Source of the DNA: Acidobacteriota bacterium
Lineage (GTDB): Bacteria > Acidobacteriota > Terriglobia > Versatilivoradales > Versatilivoraceae
Length of the DNA: 38,143 nucleotides
Reading direction: 5' to 3'
NCBI GenBank assembly: GCA_003224725.1
Contig: QHZQ01000002.1
Location: forward strand, 1 to 38,143
Part shown: piece after piece, positions 2,731-19,774 of the stretch
How positions within the stretch are numbered: the stretch's first letter is position 1
How the letters are laid out: each line of letters starts with the position of its first letter
Made by a program: the position numbers and the translations under genes
The notes under the pieces: generated by a model
Seen by the model: the letters and a program-made list of their open reading frames with translations, nothing else
Told to the model about the DNA's origin: nothing
The model's database searches: none

Positions 2731-4407
2731 TCATCTCCCCGGGCTCGCTGCGTTTGCATGCCTCGGCAGCGTAAAGGCGAAAACCGCCCCTCTGTCTACA
2801 CGAGGTTCGGCCCAGATACGCCCACCGTGAGCCTCCACAAATCCCTTGCAGATGGAAAGCCCTAAGCCCGTTCCCTCAGTGCCGGTAACTCGCGCCCCAT
2901 GACACGGTTTATCGAAGATGCCGTGGAGGTCGCCCTGGGGGATTCCGACCCCGCGGTCCGAAACCAGGATCTCGAGGTCATTCTCGGCCAAGCGGGCCTG
3001 AACTGCGATCGGCTCGTGGGCCGGAGCGTACTTGATCGCATTTTCCAGGAGATTGACCAGCACCTGGGCGATCAGCACAAAATCCATAGGCACCAAAGGC
3101 AGGTGGGCAGGAATGTCCACGGTGATCGGACGGCTTCGGGCCGCCTCCCGGAGTTGAGAAAGAGCCGCGCCGATCACGTCCTGCACATCACAGGCCTCAA
3201 CTTTGAGGCGCAGCGTGCCCGCCTCCAATCGAGTCATGTCCAGCAAGTTTCCCACGAGGCGATTCAGCCGCCCTGCTTCCTCCCGGGCGTTATCCAGCAG
3301 TTCTCGGCGAGTCACTTCGTCAAGCATGGCCTGGTCCTCGGAAAGGCTGCTTAACGTCCCCATGATCGAGGCCAACGGCGTGCGCAAACCGTGCGAAACG
3401 GAATTCAACAAAGCCTTTTGCAGTTTGTCAGCTTCCTGGAGGAGTTGGGCCTGACGGGCTTTCTGCTCGAGAAGCGCCCGTTCGGTGGCCAGAGCGGCCT
3501 GACTAACGAAGGCTTCCAGAAGTTGGCCTTGTTCCGGAGACAACGATTCGTCGCCATGCCGCGCCTTGACGGCTAACACCCCAACGACACGCAATGAGGC
3601 TGTCAGCGGCAGGTAATGCATCTCTGCTCCAGGCATGATCTCCGTTCCAGACCCTGCCTGCTGCCCGTGTTCAAGAACCCAGTTTGCCACTGTCCTTTCC
3701 TCTTCACGGAAAACGAGTCCGGGACTGCTGAAGCCTACCTCCAGACCCCCGTCCCCGGGCAATAGAATCAGGACAGGCCGCTCGAAGATTTCGCTGATTC
3801 GGTAAGCAACGACTTCGAGGATCTGGTCTAAACGGTTCACCACTGCCAGGGACCTGCTGAGCGCGTACAACGAAGCCGTGTAGGCCTCACGTCGTCTTGC
3901 TGCATCAGCCTGCTCCCTCACTTGACCCGCGAGAGTGCTGGTGACCAGGCCGACCGTCAGAAGACCGGTCAAAATAATAAAATATTTAACGTCGGAAATG
4001 GCGAAGCTGAAGAAAGGAGGTATGTAGAAATAATCGAATAGCATTGTGCCCGAGACAGCGGCAACTATAGCTGCCATGTGGCCCCAGCGCAGCGCGCTGA
4101 TCACCACCGAGAGCAGGAAGAGCATCAGAAGATTTGCGGGTTCAAGGATCGGCCGCAGTAACAAGCTGAATACAGTAGCCATTCCGATCAGAGCTAGGCT
4201 GGCCGGATATCGAACCCACCATTCGGTCTTCTGATTCTGTGATTTCGCTGCTCCATGGTCCCGCCTGGGATTCCACTGGGCTCGCGCCTCCTTCTGTTCC
4301 TTGGCCCTGGTATTCGAGGGCAACGGGTGGACTTTGGGAGACTCGGAATCACACTCCAGGGCAGGCGACGTGCGATTTGAACTCCCGGCGCTGTTCGCAA
4401 AACTCAT
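2731..4407 (-). CDS. kdpD: KdpD-like sensor histidine kinase (DUF4118 TM + GAF + HisKA + HATPase), lacking the N-terminal KdpD/Usp domains; start uncertain
   Basis: Four TM helices with FDYFYIPP, then SVSHGLRTPL, NLLDMTRLEAG, NLLENAIKY and GTGLGLSICKGFVEAHGG. Directly upstream of the kdpE-like gene. Confidence 0.8.
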   Translation of the reverse strand: MSFANSAGSSNRTSPALECDSESPKVHPLPSNTRAKEQKEARAQWNPRRDHGAAKSQNQKTEWWVRYPASLALIGMATVFSLLLRPILEPANLLMLFLLSVVISALRWGHMAAIVAAVSGTMLFDYFYIPPFFSFAISDVKYFIILTGLLTVGLVTSTLAGQVREQADAARRREAYTASLYALSRSLAVVNRLDQILEVVAYRISEIFERPVLILLPGDGGLEVGFSSPGLVFREEERTVANWVLEHGQQAGSGTEIMPGAEMHYLPLTASLRVVGVLAVKARHGDESLSPEQGQLLEAFVSQAALATERALLEQKARQAQLLQEADKLQKALLNSVSHGLRTPLASIMGTLSSLSEDQAMLDEVTRRELLDNAREEAGRLNRLVGNLLDMTRLEAGTLRLKVEACDVQDVIGAALSQLREAARSRPITVDIPAHLPLVPMDFVLIAQVLVNLLENAIKYAPAHEPIAVQARLAENDLEILVSDRGVGIPQGDLHGIFDKPCHGARVTGTEGTGLGLSICKGFVEAHGGRIWAEPRVDRGAVFAFTLPRHANAASPGR

Positions 4408-4419
4408 GATGATTCCTAA

Positions 4420-4570
4420 CGCCCTTGAATCGCTTCGAACTGCGGTTCTGTCGGCAACGGATCCCTCACCCGTCCTTCGGCCACCCTCTCCCCAGGGGAG
4501 AGGGGCTGGGAATGTGAGGACGGCAGATTAGCAAACTTGACCAAAGTTTAAACTTCGCCACCAAGGAACT
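4420..4570 (+). mobile_element. Family-A hairpin repeat element, copy 1
   Basis: CCCTCACCC..GGCCACCCTCTCCC..GGGAGAGGGGCTGGG..GGACGGCAG.TTA.CAAACTTGACCAAAGTTT is shared with 5674-5890 and 19623-19774. CTAA on both sides (4416-4419, 4571-4574). Confidence 0.75.
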
Positions 4571-4955
4571 CTAAACCCATGCTAGCACATCGTTCTGATT
4601 CTGTTGCAGGAAATTGGTTGCATGCATGGGCTTCGGTTTCGATCGCCGATCCTTGACAGATCTTTGATGCGGGGACGCCTGTTTTTGACCCACTCTTGAT
4701 ATCATTTGCCCTATAGTCGGAAATCGGAAAGAGAGCGCTGATAAAAATCGTGGATCCGGCGGAGAAAAACGCCAGATGGGAAACGCAGCAGCCAGCATCA
4801 CCAGCGCCTGAGCAGCGCCGCGAGGTTCTACACCCAAACGGACTAATCACTGGGCAACCGCAGGCCCAAGGGCACGCGGTCACGTCTGGGATCCACTGGT
4901 AGAAGAAAACAACCGCGATGGCGCAAAGGTTTCTGCAAGGAAAGGGAGGAACAAC

Positions 4956-5564
4956 ATGTCTGATGACAACTTCGTTGTGGCGGTCTACACCACCGATACG
5001 GACGTAGAGGAAGTCGTGATACTACTCCAGAAGTCCGGCTTTAACACCAAGAAACTCTCCATCGTCGCTAAGGATGACCAAACAGAGGAGCGCGCCGTGG
5101 GCTACTACATCACCGGCGGCCGAATGAAGTACTGGGGCAAGCGGGCCCCCTTCTGGGGGAGGGTATGGGGGCTGTTGGTTGGTGCGGCCTTTTTTGCCGT
5201 TCCAGGCGTTGGACCTGTGCTGGTGGCTGGACCCCTGGTGTCTTGGATAGTGGGTACATTTGAATGCACTGTCATTGCGGGCGGATTGACCACCGTCGGC
5301 GCGGGATTATACCGTATCGGCATTCCGCACAACAGCGTCCTGCAATATGAGGCCGCACTCAAGGCGAACAAGTTTGTGCTGGTGGCTTACGGCATGACAC
5401 ACGAAGTGGCCGGAGCGCTGGACATCATTCAAACAACACGCTTCACAAACTTAGCTGTGCATTCGGATGTTCGTTTGGAACGTGCGGGTACTAGACAAGC
5501 GTACACCTTAAAGACCCGGAGCATCTCTCGAAGAGATCTCGAGAAAAGCGGGCCCGCCCAGTGA
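4956..5564 (+). CDS. DUF1269/general stress protein-like membrane protein
   Basis: LQKSGF..KKLSIV.KD, GYY..G.RMKYWGK, PGVGPVLVAGPL and LY.IGIP..SVLQYEAALKA.KF. RBS GGGAGG. Confidence 0.8.
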   Translation: MSDDNFVVAVYTTDTDVEEVVILLQKSGFNTKKLSIVAKDDQTEERAVGYYITGGRMKYWGKRAPFWGRVWGLLVGAAFFAVPGVGPVLVAGPLVSWIVGTFECTVIAGGLTTVGAGLYRIGIPHNSVLQYEAALKANKFVLVAYGMTHEVAGALDIIQTTRFTNLAVHSDVRLERAGTRQAYTLKTRSISRRDLEKSGPAQ

Positions 5565-5604
5565 AGCAAACGAACACCATTTTCATCTCCAGGAGGTTAA
5601 TCCG

Positions 5605-6106
5605 AAGTCCGGCTCCAATATGAAGAAACTGTCCATCGTCGGCAAGGATTATCACACAGAGGCATGTTCTAGGGTTACTTGGTGGTGAAGAAGTTCAAAC
5701 GTCAGTCAAATTTCTTAAGCTGCCGTCCCCTCACCCAGGGAGCTTACTCAAAGCTCCCATGCCTCTCCCAATGGGAGAGGGTGGCCGAAGGTGAAGTCTT
5801 GAGAAGACTTCACGCGGTCGCGGAGGCCGGGTGAGGGGTCCGTGGCCGATAGAGCCGCACTCCTCGGCGGTGTGAGGTTGCTCGCTACAACTAGGCTGCT
5901 AGAAGGCGGGAGACCAAATGAAGTACTGGGGTAAGTTGGACACTTTCTGGGGTGGGGTATGGGGGCTATTGTTTGGAGTGGCCTTTTATGCTGCGGCCGG
6001 CTTTGGACTTCTGCAGGTAGTTGGCCTCCTGATGTCTTGGATGGTAGGTGTACTGCGGAAGCGATGGCTTGCTGCGTTCCTCGAGCGACCTGGGAAGGTG
6101 CGTTAG
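5605..6106 (+). pseudogene. Degraded paralog of the 4956-5564 gene, split by a family-A element
   Basis: 5605-5672 reads KSGSNMKKLSIVGKDYHTE-HVL. 5894 onward reads GC*KAGDQMKYWGKLDTFWGGVWGLLFG. Collinear with the upstream gene. Confidence 0.85.
5674..5890 (-). mobile_element. Family-A hairpin repeat element, copy 2, with CTAGG target duplication and two extra internal hairpins
   Basis: Reverse complement aligns with 19623-19765 and 4431-4570. CTAGG at 5669-5673 and 5891-5895. Removing it restores the host reading frame. Confidence 0.88.
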
Positions 6107-6215
6107 TTTTTAGGGCTGTCGCTGAACAGTGGGATGATCACCATTCGCTGCTTGAATTTTTTGGAAATATAGGCTCAGATAATAGTTGGACGAATTGATG
6201 GAGGTTACATAGTTA

Positions 6216-6584
6216 ATGATACATCGGCTTTTTAGAAGGTTTTGGACTCACTTCCTGATTGCCTTCGATGATAACTACACGCTGGAAGGATTTGAAAGAG
6301 CTCCGAAAAAATTTGACCTGCCTAAGAACTTCACATGGCTTGACTCACACCTGAAGAGAAAGCTAACAATTTGCAATCTTTTTGCAAATCAGAATCAATC
6401 GATAAGGAATATTGCCCGCGTGCTGGAGGTCGATTTGGGTGATGTGGTTTCAGCGCTTATTGAGGACGGCCTCATCAAAGAACGCCGAACCACGGCCGAA
6501 ATCATCAAGCAGGAAAGACGCCAGGAACGAATTCTCCCTTGGTCCCTGGCAGGACATCATCGGGTCAGACGTGGTAAGCCGTAG
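6216..6584 (+). CDS. Hypothetical protein with an HTH-like segment and ERR motifs
   Basis: GGAGG RBS then ATG. SIRNIARVLEVDLGDVVSAL resembles a helix-turn-helix. KERRT..QERRQ near the C-terminus. Confidence 0.6.
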   Translation: MIHRLFRRFWTHFLIAFDDNYTLEGFERAPKKFDLPKNFTWLDSHLKRKLTICNLFANQNQSIRNIARVLEVDLGDVVSALIEDGLIKERRTTAEIIKQERRQERILPWSLAGHHRVRRGKP

Positions 6585-6819
6585 CTGACACGAGGTAGCC
6601 AGTAAAACATCCCCTGAAAAAATTCACCTTGGAAGGCTTCGCCTTCTGTCCCTCCCTCCCTCAAAGCTGGACGGTGCCTTGGAAAGCGCAACACCCCAGA
6701 GTACAAAGGTCCTCAGACGCTCCATTAATCGCTTCCCATTGAAATTGATGAGGAAGCCTCGTTTGATGCCTGAGAGTCTTTCAAGTAAGTCAGTGGATTT
6801 GGCCTCCTGGATCTTGGCT

Positions 6820-6913
6820 CTTCATGCCCTTCATGTTCTTCATGGTAGACGGGCTTCGACGATCTTTGTCACTTGATTCGTCCACTACCATGAAGGACAT
6901 GAAGACCATGAAG
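6820..6913. repeat. 29-bp inverted repeat built from 9-bp CATGAAGNN units
   Basis: cttcatgcccttcatgttcttcatggtag (6820-6848) versus ctaccatgaaggacatgaagaccatgaag (6885-6913), 3 mismatches. Confidence 0.85.
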
Positions 6914-7109
6914 GATCAGCACGACGCTGCTCAGACCACCCACTAAGCGCTCCACATTCAGTCCAACCACTCCATTACCGTTTACTCCTGGGTGCATCCC
7001 AAAATGACAATTGAAAATTCAGAACTGAAAATCTAGACTGGGTACCTTATCAGACACTCTTGAATTTCCTATTTGGACTTTATTCTTGCACGTTCCAGGA
7101 AAGGATAGG

Positions 7110-8725
7110 ATGAAACTCAATATCAATTTCTTCTTCAAGACTTGCAGTTGGATCTTACTGACCGCCATTGGGGCTTGGGGCGCCGATCGTTACGAGCTGA
7201 AGATTGATCGTGGAGTGACCGTGAAGATGCGTGACGGCATAACCCTGCGAGCCGATATCTACAGGCCGAAAGCAGATGGCAAATTCCCCGTTTTGCTGCA
7301 ACGCACCCCTTACGACAAGAGGGGCGCTTCAGACTTTGAACTTCAGGCTGCCGCTCGCGGGTATGTCGTCATCATCCAGGATGTCCGCGGACGCTACACT
7401 TCCGAGGGCGAGTGGTACCCTTTTCTGAACGAATCTCAGGATGGCTTCGAGACGGTAGAGTGGGCCGCGGCTATGCCTTATGCAGACGGGAAGGTGGGAA
7501 TGTTTGGAGCCTCCCAGGCATCTTTCCTGTGGTTACGGCTTCCAACTACCACGATGGGTGGACTTACCAGGGTGGCGCCTTTGAACAATGGTTCAGTGAG
7601 TCCTGGACATCTGGTTTGGCCCAGGACACTCTCAATCGCCGAGTCCAGAAAAATTCCAATGCCCTGCAGTGGGTCTGGAAGCTGCCGCTGACAAACTATC
7701 CGTTCTTTGACCTCGGCAGCACGGAAGGCCTGGCGAGTTACTTTATCGATTGGCTCAAGCATCCCAGCTATGACGAGTACTGGCGGCGATGGTCGATTGA
7801 GGACTATTATTCAAAGGTGATGGTGCCCGCCTATCATGTAGGGGGATGGTACGACATCTTCATGGGGGGGACGGTGAGAAATTATGTGGGACTGAAGGCC
7901 GCAGGCGGGAGCGACGAAGCTCGACGGGGGCAGCGCTTGCTGATTGGCCCCTGGTATCACGGGCCATTTAATGGAAAGAGCGGTGAAATGGACTTCAGTC
8001 CCCAGGCCAAAGGAGATACCGACACGGGACGGAGCGAGAGAAGCCAGTCAAGATTTTTGTCATGGGCAAAAACACTTGGCGCCAGGAAGACGGTTGGCCG
8101 TTGGCTCGAGCCCGCAGCACGCGTTACTTCCTGCACTCTGGAGGAAATGCACACTCCCTGCCTGGTGGCGGAGACCTCAGGACGGCCCAGCCACAAAATG
8201 AAGGTCCAGACACTTTCATTTACGACCCGGCAGAACCTGTGCTGACCCGTGGAGGTGGGTTGTGTTGTGATAACGATCGTCTTGCTTCGGGCGTCTTTGA
8301 TCAAAGACCGATTGAGGCACGAGGCGATGTCCTGATTTATTCAACCCCAGTTTTCAAAGAAGATTTCGAGGTGACCGGGCCTGTCTCGCTGGAACTCTAT
8401 GCCAGCTCTTCGGCCGTGGATACCGACTTTACGGCCAAGCTGGTGGACGTCTGGCCCAATGGATTTGCCCAAAACTTGACGGACAGCATTCTCCGGGCGC
8501 GCTACCGATAAGTTCACCATCGATCTCTGGGCTACCAGCAATGTCTTCCTGGCCGGTCATCAGCTGAGGTTAGAAATTTCCAGCAGCAATTTTCCGCGTT
8601 TTGATCGCAATTTGAACACTGGAGAGGATCCAAGCCAAGCCACGCGACTGCTGAAGGCGAATAACACAATCTACCATGACCGCGAGCATCCATCGGCCCT
8701 GCTATTGCCGGTATTACCACAGTGA
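7110..8725 (+). pseudogene. CocE/NonD (peptidase S15) hydrolase in four fragments separated by deletions
   Basis: MRDGITLRADIYRP, RTPYDK, QDVRGRYTSEG | GGWYDIF, LIGPWYHG | YDPAEPV, DTDFTAKLVDV | IDLWATSNVF..LEISSSNFPRFDRN..HPSALLLPV*. Frame breaks near 7514, 8023 and 8508. Confidence 0.9.
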
Positions 8726-19622: not shown

Positions 19623-19774
19623 TTGTAGCGAGCAACCTCAGACCGCCCAGGATGACGGCTCCATCGGCGACTGACCCCTCACCCGGCCTGCGGCCACCCT
19701 CTCCCAATGGGAGAGGGGCTGGGGGTGAGGGGACGGCAGGTTAACAAACTTGACCAAAGTTTGAAGGCGGCTTG
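19623..19774 (+). mobile_element. Family-A hairpin repeat element, copy 3
   Basis: Starts TTGTAGCGAGCAACCTCA, exactly like copy 2. AGGCTGA at 19616-19622 and 19775-19781. Confidence 0.85.

Follow-up and report, generated by a model that had tools for sequence, protein, structure and literature searches.

The 38,143-nt stretch of an Acidobacteriota genome analyzed here (the window; assembly GCA_003224725.1, contig QHZQ01000002.1, positions 1 to 38,143 of the forward strand) carries at 5673..5888 (+) a 216-nt segment, GGTTACTTGG...GCTCGCTAC, that is very probably a mobile element without terminal inverted repeats (TIRs), derived from a 1.79-kb insertion sequence (IS) and inserted without duplication of its target. 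Copies of the family sit precisely 3′ of CTAG, the site CTAG^NN-CTAG is preferred (the caret marks the insertion point), and nothing is duplicated. The 1.79-kb relative has a single open reading frame (ORF), for a 538-aa protein that we regard, with slightly better than even confidence, as the transposase. More tentatively, and at a little under an even chance, we propose that the family is an unrecognized bacterial IS superfamily, in which a tyrosine endonuclease with the fold of a TATA-box binding protein (TBP), kin to Rep_trans and Rep-Arvir and joined to a winged helix, would move elements into CTAG via a single-stranded or rolling-circle intermediate. A sequence-only reading of the same DNA had described a 217-bp hairpin element caught inside a gene and flanked by a CTAGG target duplication.

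Element boundaries and insertion without target duplication

Alignment of copies, empty sites, and the ends of metagenome contigs define the element. In an alignment of 77 copies with their flanks, conservation starts at CTAG^GGTTACTTGG (CTAG^GGTTAC) and stops at ...GGTCTGAGGTTGCTCGCTAC. Contigs from four soil metagenome runs cover 5651-5896 at 50 to 1,000 times the flank depth, and they leave the window sequence at 5669/5670 and at 5888, the boundaries of the element. Directly 5′ lies the target CTAG (5669..5672, +), the proposed left cleavage site, as read from the left-end base counts and the empty sites; directly 3′ lie AA and CTAG (5889..5894, +), which right-end base counts and empty sites identify as the second half of the preferred target (NN-CTAG) and not as a duplication. 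The element comprises a left arm (5673..5726, +), a structured core (5727..5838, +) in which a long stem, CCCCTCACCC/GGGTGAGGGG, surrounds three hairpins, and a right arm (5839..5888, +), which closes with the 20-nt terminus that is conserved across phyla (5869-5888) and ends in CTAC, the proposed right cleavage site. The CTAGG pair lies where the sequence-only reading placed it, at 5669-5673 and 5891-5895 and 217 nt apart, and the claimed absence of TIRs is confirmed by a shuffle test of the ends: for the first versus the reverse-complemented last 20, 30, and 45 nt, the observed score was reached by 500, 439, and 314 of 500 shuffles, respectively, and in register the termini agree at 3 of 20 bases. 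The segment was also correctly described as lacking an ORF; no frame reaches 60 aa, and those present, of 51 aa (TTG start, 5679-5834) and 30 aa, are mechanical.

When the element was searched against its own genome (6.6 Mb, 763 contigs), blastn returned 327 high-scoring segment pairs, 79 of which span at least 190 nt of the query, and single-arm matches number 121 for the left arm and 134 for the right. A stricter anchor search gave 113 complete copies of 140-290 nt, with a median nearest-copy identity of 93.9% and a maximum of 98.1%. The copies fall into size classes (160-169 nt, n = 43; 180-189 nt, n = 32; 190-219 nt, n = 26) because the hairpins of the core, a modular passenger that varies among copies, are present or absent.

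The junctions of these copies reveal the target. Counted over 155 left junctions, the tetranucleotide that precedes the element has C in 73%, T in 75%, A in 81%, and G in 83%, and upstream of it the sequence is random; over 165 right junctions, the first two positions (+1 and +2) are random, and C (47%), T (72%), A (54%), and G (67%) follow at +3 to +6. CTAG occurs 6,904 times in this genome versus about 25,648 expected from composition, a 3.7-fold under-representation. The motif CTAGNNCTAG is found free 14 times, and 19 of 111 element copies sit inside one, among them the window copy with its CTAGG...CTAGG.

Exact presence and absence at orthologous and paralogous sites, together with the 113 complete copies, bear out the earlier claim that the repeat is mobile. 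The claim that it inserts with a target duplication does not hold, because the orthologous and six paralogous empty sites show nothing duplicated and the second CTAG is part of the preferred target. The orthologous site is that of the copy on contig C25, the genome copy closest to the window copy over its full length (93%). It is filled here and empty in the sister genome G001 (contig C3, between 7704 and 7705), where exactly 216 nt (GGTTAC...GCTCGCTAC) are absent, and the joined C25 flanks (..CTAG+ACTTAGG..) align without a gap to ..CTGGGCTCAGG.. of G001. Candidate paralogous empty sites were available for eight elements, and all were examined; e43 (repetitive flank) and e62 (diverged flanks) were uninformative. 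The six interpretable sites all read ..CTAG^NN-YTWG.., with each flank present once and with a length difference, apart from the element, of 0 nt (four sites) or 1 nt (two sites). We assign the NN to the target because it varies, beside the proximal end, among eight otherwise near-identical copies of the 1.79-kb IS in another genome, G041. Across the element, the dinucleotide before the left CTAG equals the right NN in 10 of 111 copies, compared with 7.4 ± 2.6 in shuffles.

Some observations weigh against insertion without duplication. A second ortholog pair (C489 versus contig C412 of G001, empty in G001) differs by 8 nt beside the element, and its flanks resemble an imperfect repeat, CGCCCTAG / ACCCCTTG; perfect 6-bp direct repeats flank 6 of 111 copies. 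No natural empty site was seen for the window copy, as none of the contigs of the four soil metagenome runs skips 5673-5888. We read the 6-bp repeats and the C489 surplus as a property of the preferred target because unoccupied CTAGNNCTAG sites are equally often tandem hexamers (4 of 14). A 6-bp duplication was ruled out by this free-site background and by the lack of an overall excess of NN identity, and a 2-bp duplication, in which the first two bases of the element would equal the right NN, by the window copy, C25, and C389. The remaining form of this explanation is a DDE element (IS5- or IS701-type) that makes a 4-5 bp duplication of CTAG or CTAGG. Such an element would account for CTAGG on both sides of the window copy, for CTAG on both sides of the 19 copies inside the motif, for the hexamer repeats, and for the repeat-like surplus of the one ortholog pair, and the deletion proposed by the sequence-only reading fits the paralog of the host sequence about as well as its competitors (below). 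We nevertheless consider it highly improbable, given that the empty sites already hold CTAG plus an NN-YTWG hexamer, that the NN is not inherited among identical IS copies and matches across the element at the chance level, that free sites are tandem as often, that there are no TIRs, and that the associated ORF has no match to a DDE family.

The core is predicted to be highly structured. Its DNA fold has an energy of -52.3 kcal/mol (z = -5.5), with none of 200 shuffles equally stable; strong structure is predicted for either strand (z = -5.5 and -5.7), and each end of the element has small predicted hairpins nearby. An Rfam scan of 4000-7000 (E up to 1) gave nothing near a gathering score, the best match within the element being whalefall-1 at 17.5 bits versus a gathering score of 37 (E = 0.41). 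Structure on both strands, and the occurrence of the core by itself in intergenic DNA of another genus, are what one might expect of structured noncoding RNA genes, or of regulatory or terminator repeats spread by recombination and not transposed. There is only a very slight probability that the repeats are of this kind, as they belong to no Rfam family, are exactly present or absent at orthologous and paralogous sites, follow a sharp target motif, and share their ends with a protein-coding IS.

We note separately that the inner hairpin module (5762-5838) stands alone in G007, a genome of another genus, with the arms absent and 96-100% identity over 66-76 nt (loci L143-L145, intergenic; for example G007:C28:204229-204294 and G007:C1:97241-97316). 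Between genera the core module is far more alike than the arms, and one possibility is a palindromic unit that is separate, nested, or spreads on its own.

The autonomous relative and its 538-aa protein

The terminal 20-mer pattern of the right arm recurs in public genomes in at least 88 stretches, nearly always followed by NN-(C)TAG. The hosts are metagenome-assembled genomes labeled Acidobacteriota, Planctomycetota, Verrucomicrobiota, Actinomycetota, Myxococcota, Chloroflexota, and others. Among the loci listed, an ORF of one protein family begins 102-218 nt inside the terminus and reads inward in 16 of 80, and terminus and family ORF occur together in at least five phyla (Acidobacteriota, Actinomycetota, Verrucomicrobiota, Myxococcota, and Chloroflexota). 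In G041, the IS is present at 15 places with at least 92% identity, and with 99-100% at most of these; boundaries drawn from eight copies give a unit of 1,790 nt including the terminal CTAG, from GTAGCGAGC... to ...GACCAAGGGGTCT-CTAG, with a single ORF of 538 aa and no Y1 gene. The ORF-distal end of this IS (...GTTTGTGAACTTTTTCTTGACCAAGGGGTCT, followed by CTAG) aligns with the reverse complement of the left arm of the small element, and the ORF-proximal end matches the right arm. Because the ends match, we regard the window element as an internally replaced derivative of a G041-type IS. The sequence-only reading had raised a match to the ends of a catalogued IS; the ends are indeed those of an IS, but of one held by no library that we searched. 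Beside one 1.79-kb copy in G041, about 70 nt outside its ORF-proximal end, we observed an IS110-family gene (L128:355-1452, -; NF033542, E = 2.9e-62) that might have targeted the proximal end of the element or its CTAG-rich flank.

The earlier suggestion that the enzyme acts in trans and is encoded elsewhere agrees with these data: the window has no homolog of the 538-aa protein, and the only homologs in the genome lie on other contigs. These are 30% identical to it and comprise a full-length copy on C694 (a 577-aa open frame), a copy on C120 cut by the contig end, and a fragment on C119; the C694 and C120 copies are 90.7% identical over 1,110 nt. Upstream of its ORF, the resident element has what we take, from the sequence, to be a putative four-helix-bundle gene (23S rRNA intervening sequence-like). 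The derivation of the window element has one finding against it, in that an autonomous copy with the ends of the window family was not found in its own genome (88.7% complete). A search there for left and right arms separated by 0.3-5 kb gave two pairs only (C329 and C525), which are probably unrelated copies or chance. An autonomous copy may be unassembled, lost, or replaced by cross-mobilization.

The ends of the resident element (C694:1-2060, C120:1-1340) in turn match a second family of small TIR-less repeats in this genome, with about 60 blast matches for each end elsewhere. The proximal end of this family reads CTAACTAG-N followed by a CAAGGGC..GCCCTTG hairpin, and the distal end reads ..CGAGAACAAAATTCTCG TTTCGCC..CATAACGGNCTAG; small copies lie, for example, at C703:38263-38545, C361:16668-16966, and C620:18190-18492.

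The geometry of the element, with no TIR, no duplication, and insertion 3′ of a tetranucleotide, is that of IS200/IS605, and this raises the alternative that it is a REP/BIME- or PATE-like palindrome moved by a Y1 HUH transposase (a RAYT or an IS200/IS605 TnpA) encoded elsewhere, with the 538-aa ORF as a passenger. The reverse complement of the right end begins with GTAG, like the GTAG-tagged REPs in the accessible part of PMC3733652, and the genome has six Y1_Tnp matches. None of the six Y1 genes, however, has an arm of the family on its contig, the only match being a 38-nt core fragment on C507, some 3 kb distant. Moreover, the 1.79-kb element reached 15 near-identical places without a Y1 gene, and across phyla it is the 538-aa ORF that accompanies the terminus, in the proportion given above. 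We therefore consider a Y1 enzyme quite unlikely.

Sequence searches place the 538-aa protein in none of the Pfam or NCBIfam families (E up to 0.01), and 27 members of its family match none at E up to 10; PHROGs and PADLOC gave weak matches to the winged-helix stretch only, and searches of PDB sequences with phmmer and with the family profile gave only winged-helix or chance matches. ESM Atlas matches are unnamed clusters with scores of at most 0.81. The family itself is large. Of 8,000 scored candidates, 7,897 are homologs at E up to 1e-5; those that a source names are "hypothetical" save two with regulator-type names, and their longest contigs are mostly about 1.8-2 kb, close to the length of the element. 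Cluster representatives at 50% identity that match the family number 8,829. Within the phylum, 18 of 301 sampled genomes carry it, often in several copies and with broken ones (one carrier, G087, is flagged as unpublished). The protein also occurs in 24 plasmid records from Rhodococcus, Burkholderia-group, and mycobacterial hosts, where annotated copies (PGAP) are "hypothetical" or "uncharacterized" except that one record names it an ArsR-family regulator.

In the predicted models (predicted local distance difference test score of 89.3 for the full length and 91.4 for the N-terminal domain), the N-terminal domain is TBP-like, with TBPs and Rep_trans rolling-circle initiators as its closest resemblances, and a winged helix comes after it. 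Foldseek against the PDB places 4cij first (E of about 7e-3, probability 0.77-0.85); against BFVD, the named matches include viral TBPs (E = 5.2e-4) and, lower in the ranking at E above 0.01, a pair of Inoviridae proteins, of which one is named Rep. We grade the TBP-like fold class as no more than likely because these structural scores are mid-range on the scale of the tool itself. In an alignment of 27 sequences, D20, R21, E113, N175, H177, N196, Q251, E253, K325, Y327, R335, and D345 are invariant, and K329 and E337 are nearly so; Y327-x-K329 and R335-x-E337 sit on neighboring predicted strands. In Rep_trans, motif III is YxKxxE and motif IV is W/LxRxE, and the catalytic Tyr lies on a beta-sheet (PMC5714925, in the part available). 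RepC of pT181 reads IYNKKQER...WRVE, and the Y-x-K...R-x-E of our family resembles motifs III and IV. We tentatively read the putative transposase as a tyrosine nuclease whose TBP-like fold is akin to those of Rep_trans and Rep-Arvir, with a winged-helix domain attached that would bind DNA.

This assignment has evidence against it as well. The catalytic position of Y327 is putative; at E up to 10, none of the 27 members matches PF02486 or PF25227; hhalign, run with the family profile against the single pT181 RepC sequence, gives a probability of 0.1; and the profile search of PDB sequences mentioned above gave no link to Rep_trans. That the best fold matches are TBPs, which do not cut, and that no nuclease family is matched by sequence would also suit a protein that is a DNA-binding accessory (a TBP-like saddle plus winged helix), the cutting being left to the host or to an as-yet-unseen enzyme. 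We judge this unlikely. The protein is the sole ORF of an element with 15 near-identical places, its invariant Tyr, Lys, Arg, and acidic residues are not obviously needed by a DNA binder, and Rep_trans and Rep-Arvir, whose fold and architecture it is predicted to share, do cut.

If the 538-aa protein is a nuclease of the proposed kind, it would nick one strand at two places, 3′ of the flanking CTAG and 3′ of the similar CTAC with which the element ends, through Y327 and with a metal held by acidic residues. The freed strand, closed or displaced, would form a single-stranded or rolling-circle intermediate in which CTAC^GGTTAC is the junction, and insertion of this intermediate would take place 3′ of a target CTAG. 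Recognition of the arms, and perhaps of the tandem CTAG-like half-sites, would fall to the winged helix and the TBP-like saddle, and the window copy would be mobilized in trans. The overall scheme would follow the logic of IS200/IS605 (IS608) and IS91 with a different enzyme fold.

The window locus and its surroundings

The sequence around the window copy is a paralog of the neighboring gene, as had been recognized: 5604-5662 is 81% identical to 5030-5088, and 5894-6049 is 76% identical to 5100-5255. The intact paralog is a YflT-like gene of 202 aa (4956..5564, +; PF11181, E = 3.8e-7, 31 bits, cutoff 26.2). The element splits a decayed partial duplicate of it (5604..6049, +; repeats D1 and D2, a TAG stop, and a frame mismatch), which spans about codons 26-100 of the 202-codon gene and matches 5030-5255, with the element removed, at 169 of 226 positions (75%). 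The description of an element "caught inside a gene" is thus right about the interruption and overstated about the gene, as the host is a truncated duplicate with a TAG stop just past the insertion. The empty site that the sequence-only reading reconstructed as codon-collinear is not collinear across the junction. From the shared ACAGAG to the shared ATGAAG, its 222-nt deletion leaves 34 nt, versus 36 nt in the intact gene, and its frame (..HVLGC*..) differs from that of the upstream homology (KSGSNMKKLSIVGKDYHTEACSR); neither reconstruction restores the frame of the duplicate. When each version is aligned globally to the intact paralog, that deletion scores 221 (2-nt gap), the model without duplication 215 (4-nt gap), and a removal of 220 nt scores 220 (no gap). 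The paralog cannot choose among the three deletion models because all score about alike, and for the same reason the boundaries are not settled by the window locus alone. At the orthologous locus in G001, the contigs stop at repeats and the YflT-like gene is absent from them. A joint in the metagenome contigs recorded as "goes back 792" was rejected as an empty allele; it is the paralog.

In the remnant of the duplicate 3′ of the insertion, an open 62-aa frame (MKYWGKLDTFWGG...) runs at 5918-6106 (+), with GGGAGA six bases before its ATG; judging by the sequence, it could encode a small membrane peptide that is still made. Two further copies of the repeat family lie in the window, both decayed and both on the minus strand. 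The copy at 4441..4570 has its left end intact after TTAG and a degenerate right end, and that at 19625..19765 has an intact right end (..GCTCGCTAC followed by AATCAG) and has lost its first ~25 nt. The interval 6811-6920 holds a 29-nt near-perfect inverted repeat (6820-6848 / 6885-6913, 90% complementary) with CATGAAG-type units, for which Rfam gave miRNA matches at the chance level only. The overlapping frames 7086-7691 and 7412-8245, within 7086-8245 (+), look like a single frameshifted gene.

Relation to known systems and implications

Among known transposons, the element can be compared with IS200/IS605 and its small palindrome-associated derivatives, with which it shares the lack of TIRs and of target duplication, insertion 3′ of a specific tetranucleotide, abundant noncoding derivatives, small predicted hairpins near the ends, and a final CTAC that resembles the target CTAG. 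IS608 has TTAC as target and TCAA as right cleavage site. The autonomous relative described here differs in having neither a Y1 HUH TnpA (PF01797) nor TnpB, its 538-aa protein belongs to no Pfam family, and the element prefers a second CTAG-like motif two bases downstream. Elements of the IS91 / ISCR / Helitron type are likewise similar, in that one end of ours abuts a conserved target tetranucleotide and a 5′-truncated copy is present in the window; IS91 uses GTTC/CTTG. Such elements have neither inverted repeats nor direct repeats (PMC5714925, available part), and the same is true of ours, but theirs are HUH Y2 enzymes, whereas the family here has no HUH match and a predicted TBP-like fold.

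Two groups of rolling-circle initiators can be compared with the predicted enzyme. Rep_trans (RepD/RepC of pT181, RepSTK1, and MOBT relaxases; PF02486) differs in that the domain of our family is about 130 residues larger and is fused to a winged helix; a PF02486 scan found no match in the 301 sampled genomes of the phylum. According to the portions of a 2017 review (PMC5714925) and of PMC13107129 that were accessible, Rep_trans proteins occur on plasmids, filamentous phages, and conjugative elements; they are not known from insertion sequences. Rep-Arvir (DUF7845, PF25227, plus a winged helix-turn-helix) comprises rolling-circle initiators of archaeal viruses and plasmids with a TBP-fold domain, in which a Tyr and two acidic residues are essential by mutation; the same source, published in 2026, describes DUF7845, in its accessible part, as a replication initiator exclusive to archaea (PMC13107129). 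Set beside what is given there, our family is predicted to have the same two-part architecture. A TBP-fold domain makes up the first 300-380 aa or so, and a MarR-like winged helix comes after it; within the domain, one acidic residue lies close to the N-terminus, the Tyr lies at about 280-330, and another acidic residue is found 10-20 positions beyond the Tyr. The Foldseek matches are of the same kind as well (viral TBPs and Inoviridae proteins). Our family differs in being bacterial, in forming multicopy 1.8-kb chromosomal insertions, and in having no PF25227 match.

As a derivative, the small element behaves like a classical miniature inverted-repeat transposable element in being small, noncoding, present at high copy number, equipped with the ends of an autonomous IS, and mobilized in trans, and differs from one in having neither TIRs nor a target duplication. 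Like REP/BIME/REPIN repeats with their RAYTs, it forms modular mosaics of palindromic units, has GTAG at one end (on the opposite strand), and lies mostly between genes; it is mainly 160-220 nt (range 140-290) with asymmetric arms, versus 20-40 bp palindromes, and no RAYT adjoins it, as seen for the six Y1 genes. Literature listings and abstracts, a scope outside of which ISfinder and subscription journals lay, contained no IS with a Rep_trans or TBP-fold transposase and no TIR-less CTAG-targeting element, and a prior description under another name is possible.

Independent of the enzyme, our results correct the anatomy of the element: its ends are exact, its insertion duplicates nothing, and its CTAG target is bipartite. 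Such repeats cause breaks in assemblies, as seen from homolog contigs about as long as the element and from a G001 contig that ends at a repeat, and they are missed in mobilome surveys. They may also account for part of the scarcity of CTAG and of the occupancy of its sites. If the enzyme assignment is true, the large family would be a class of transposase that current annotation pipelines do not recognize. A sequence-specific, duplication-free, single-strand inserter with a new fold would be of interest to genome engineers, and the family, residing among thousands of "hypothetical proteins" in soil bacteria and on plasmids from relatives of Rhodococcus, Mycobacterium, and Burkholderia, would represent a third, non-HUH solution to single-strand transposition.

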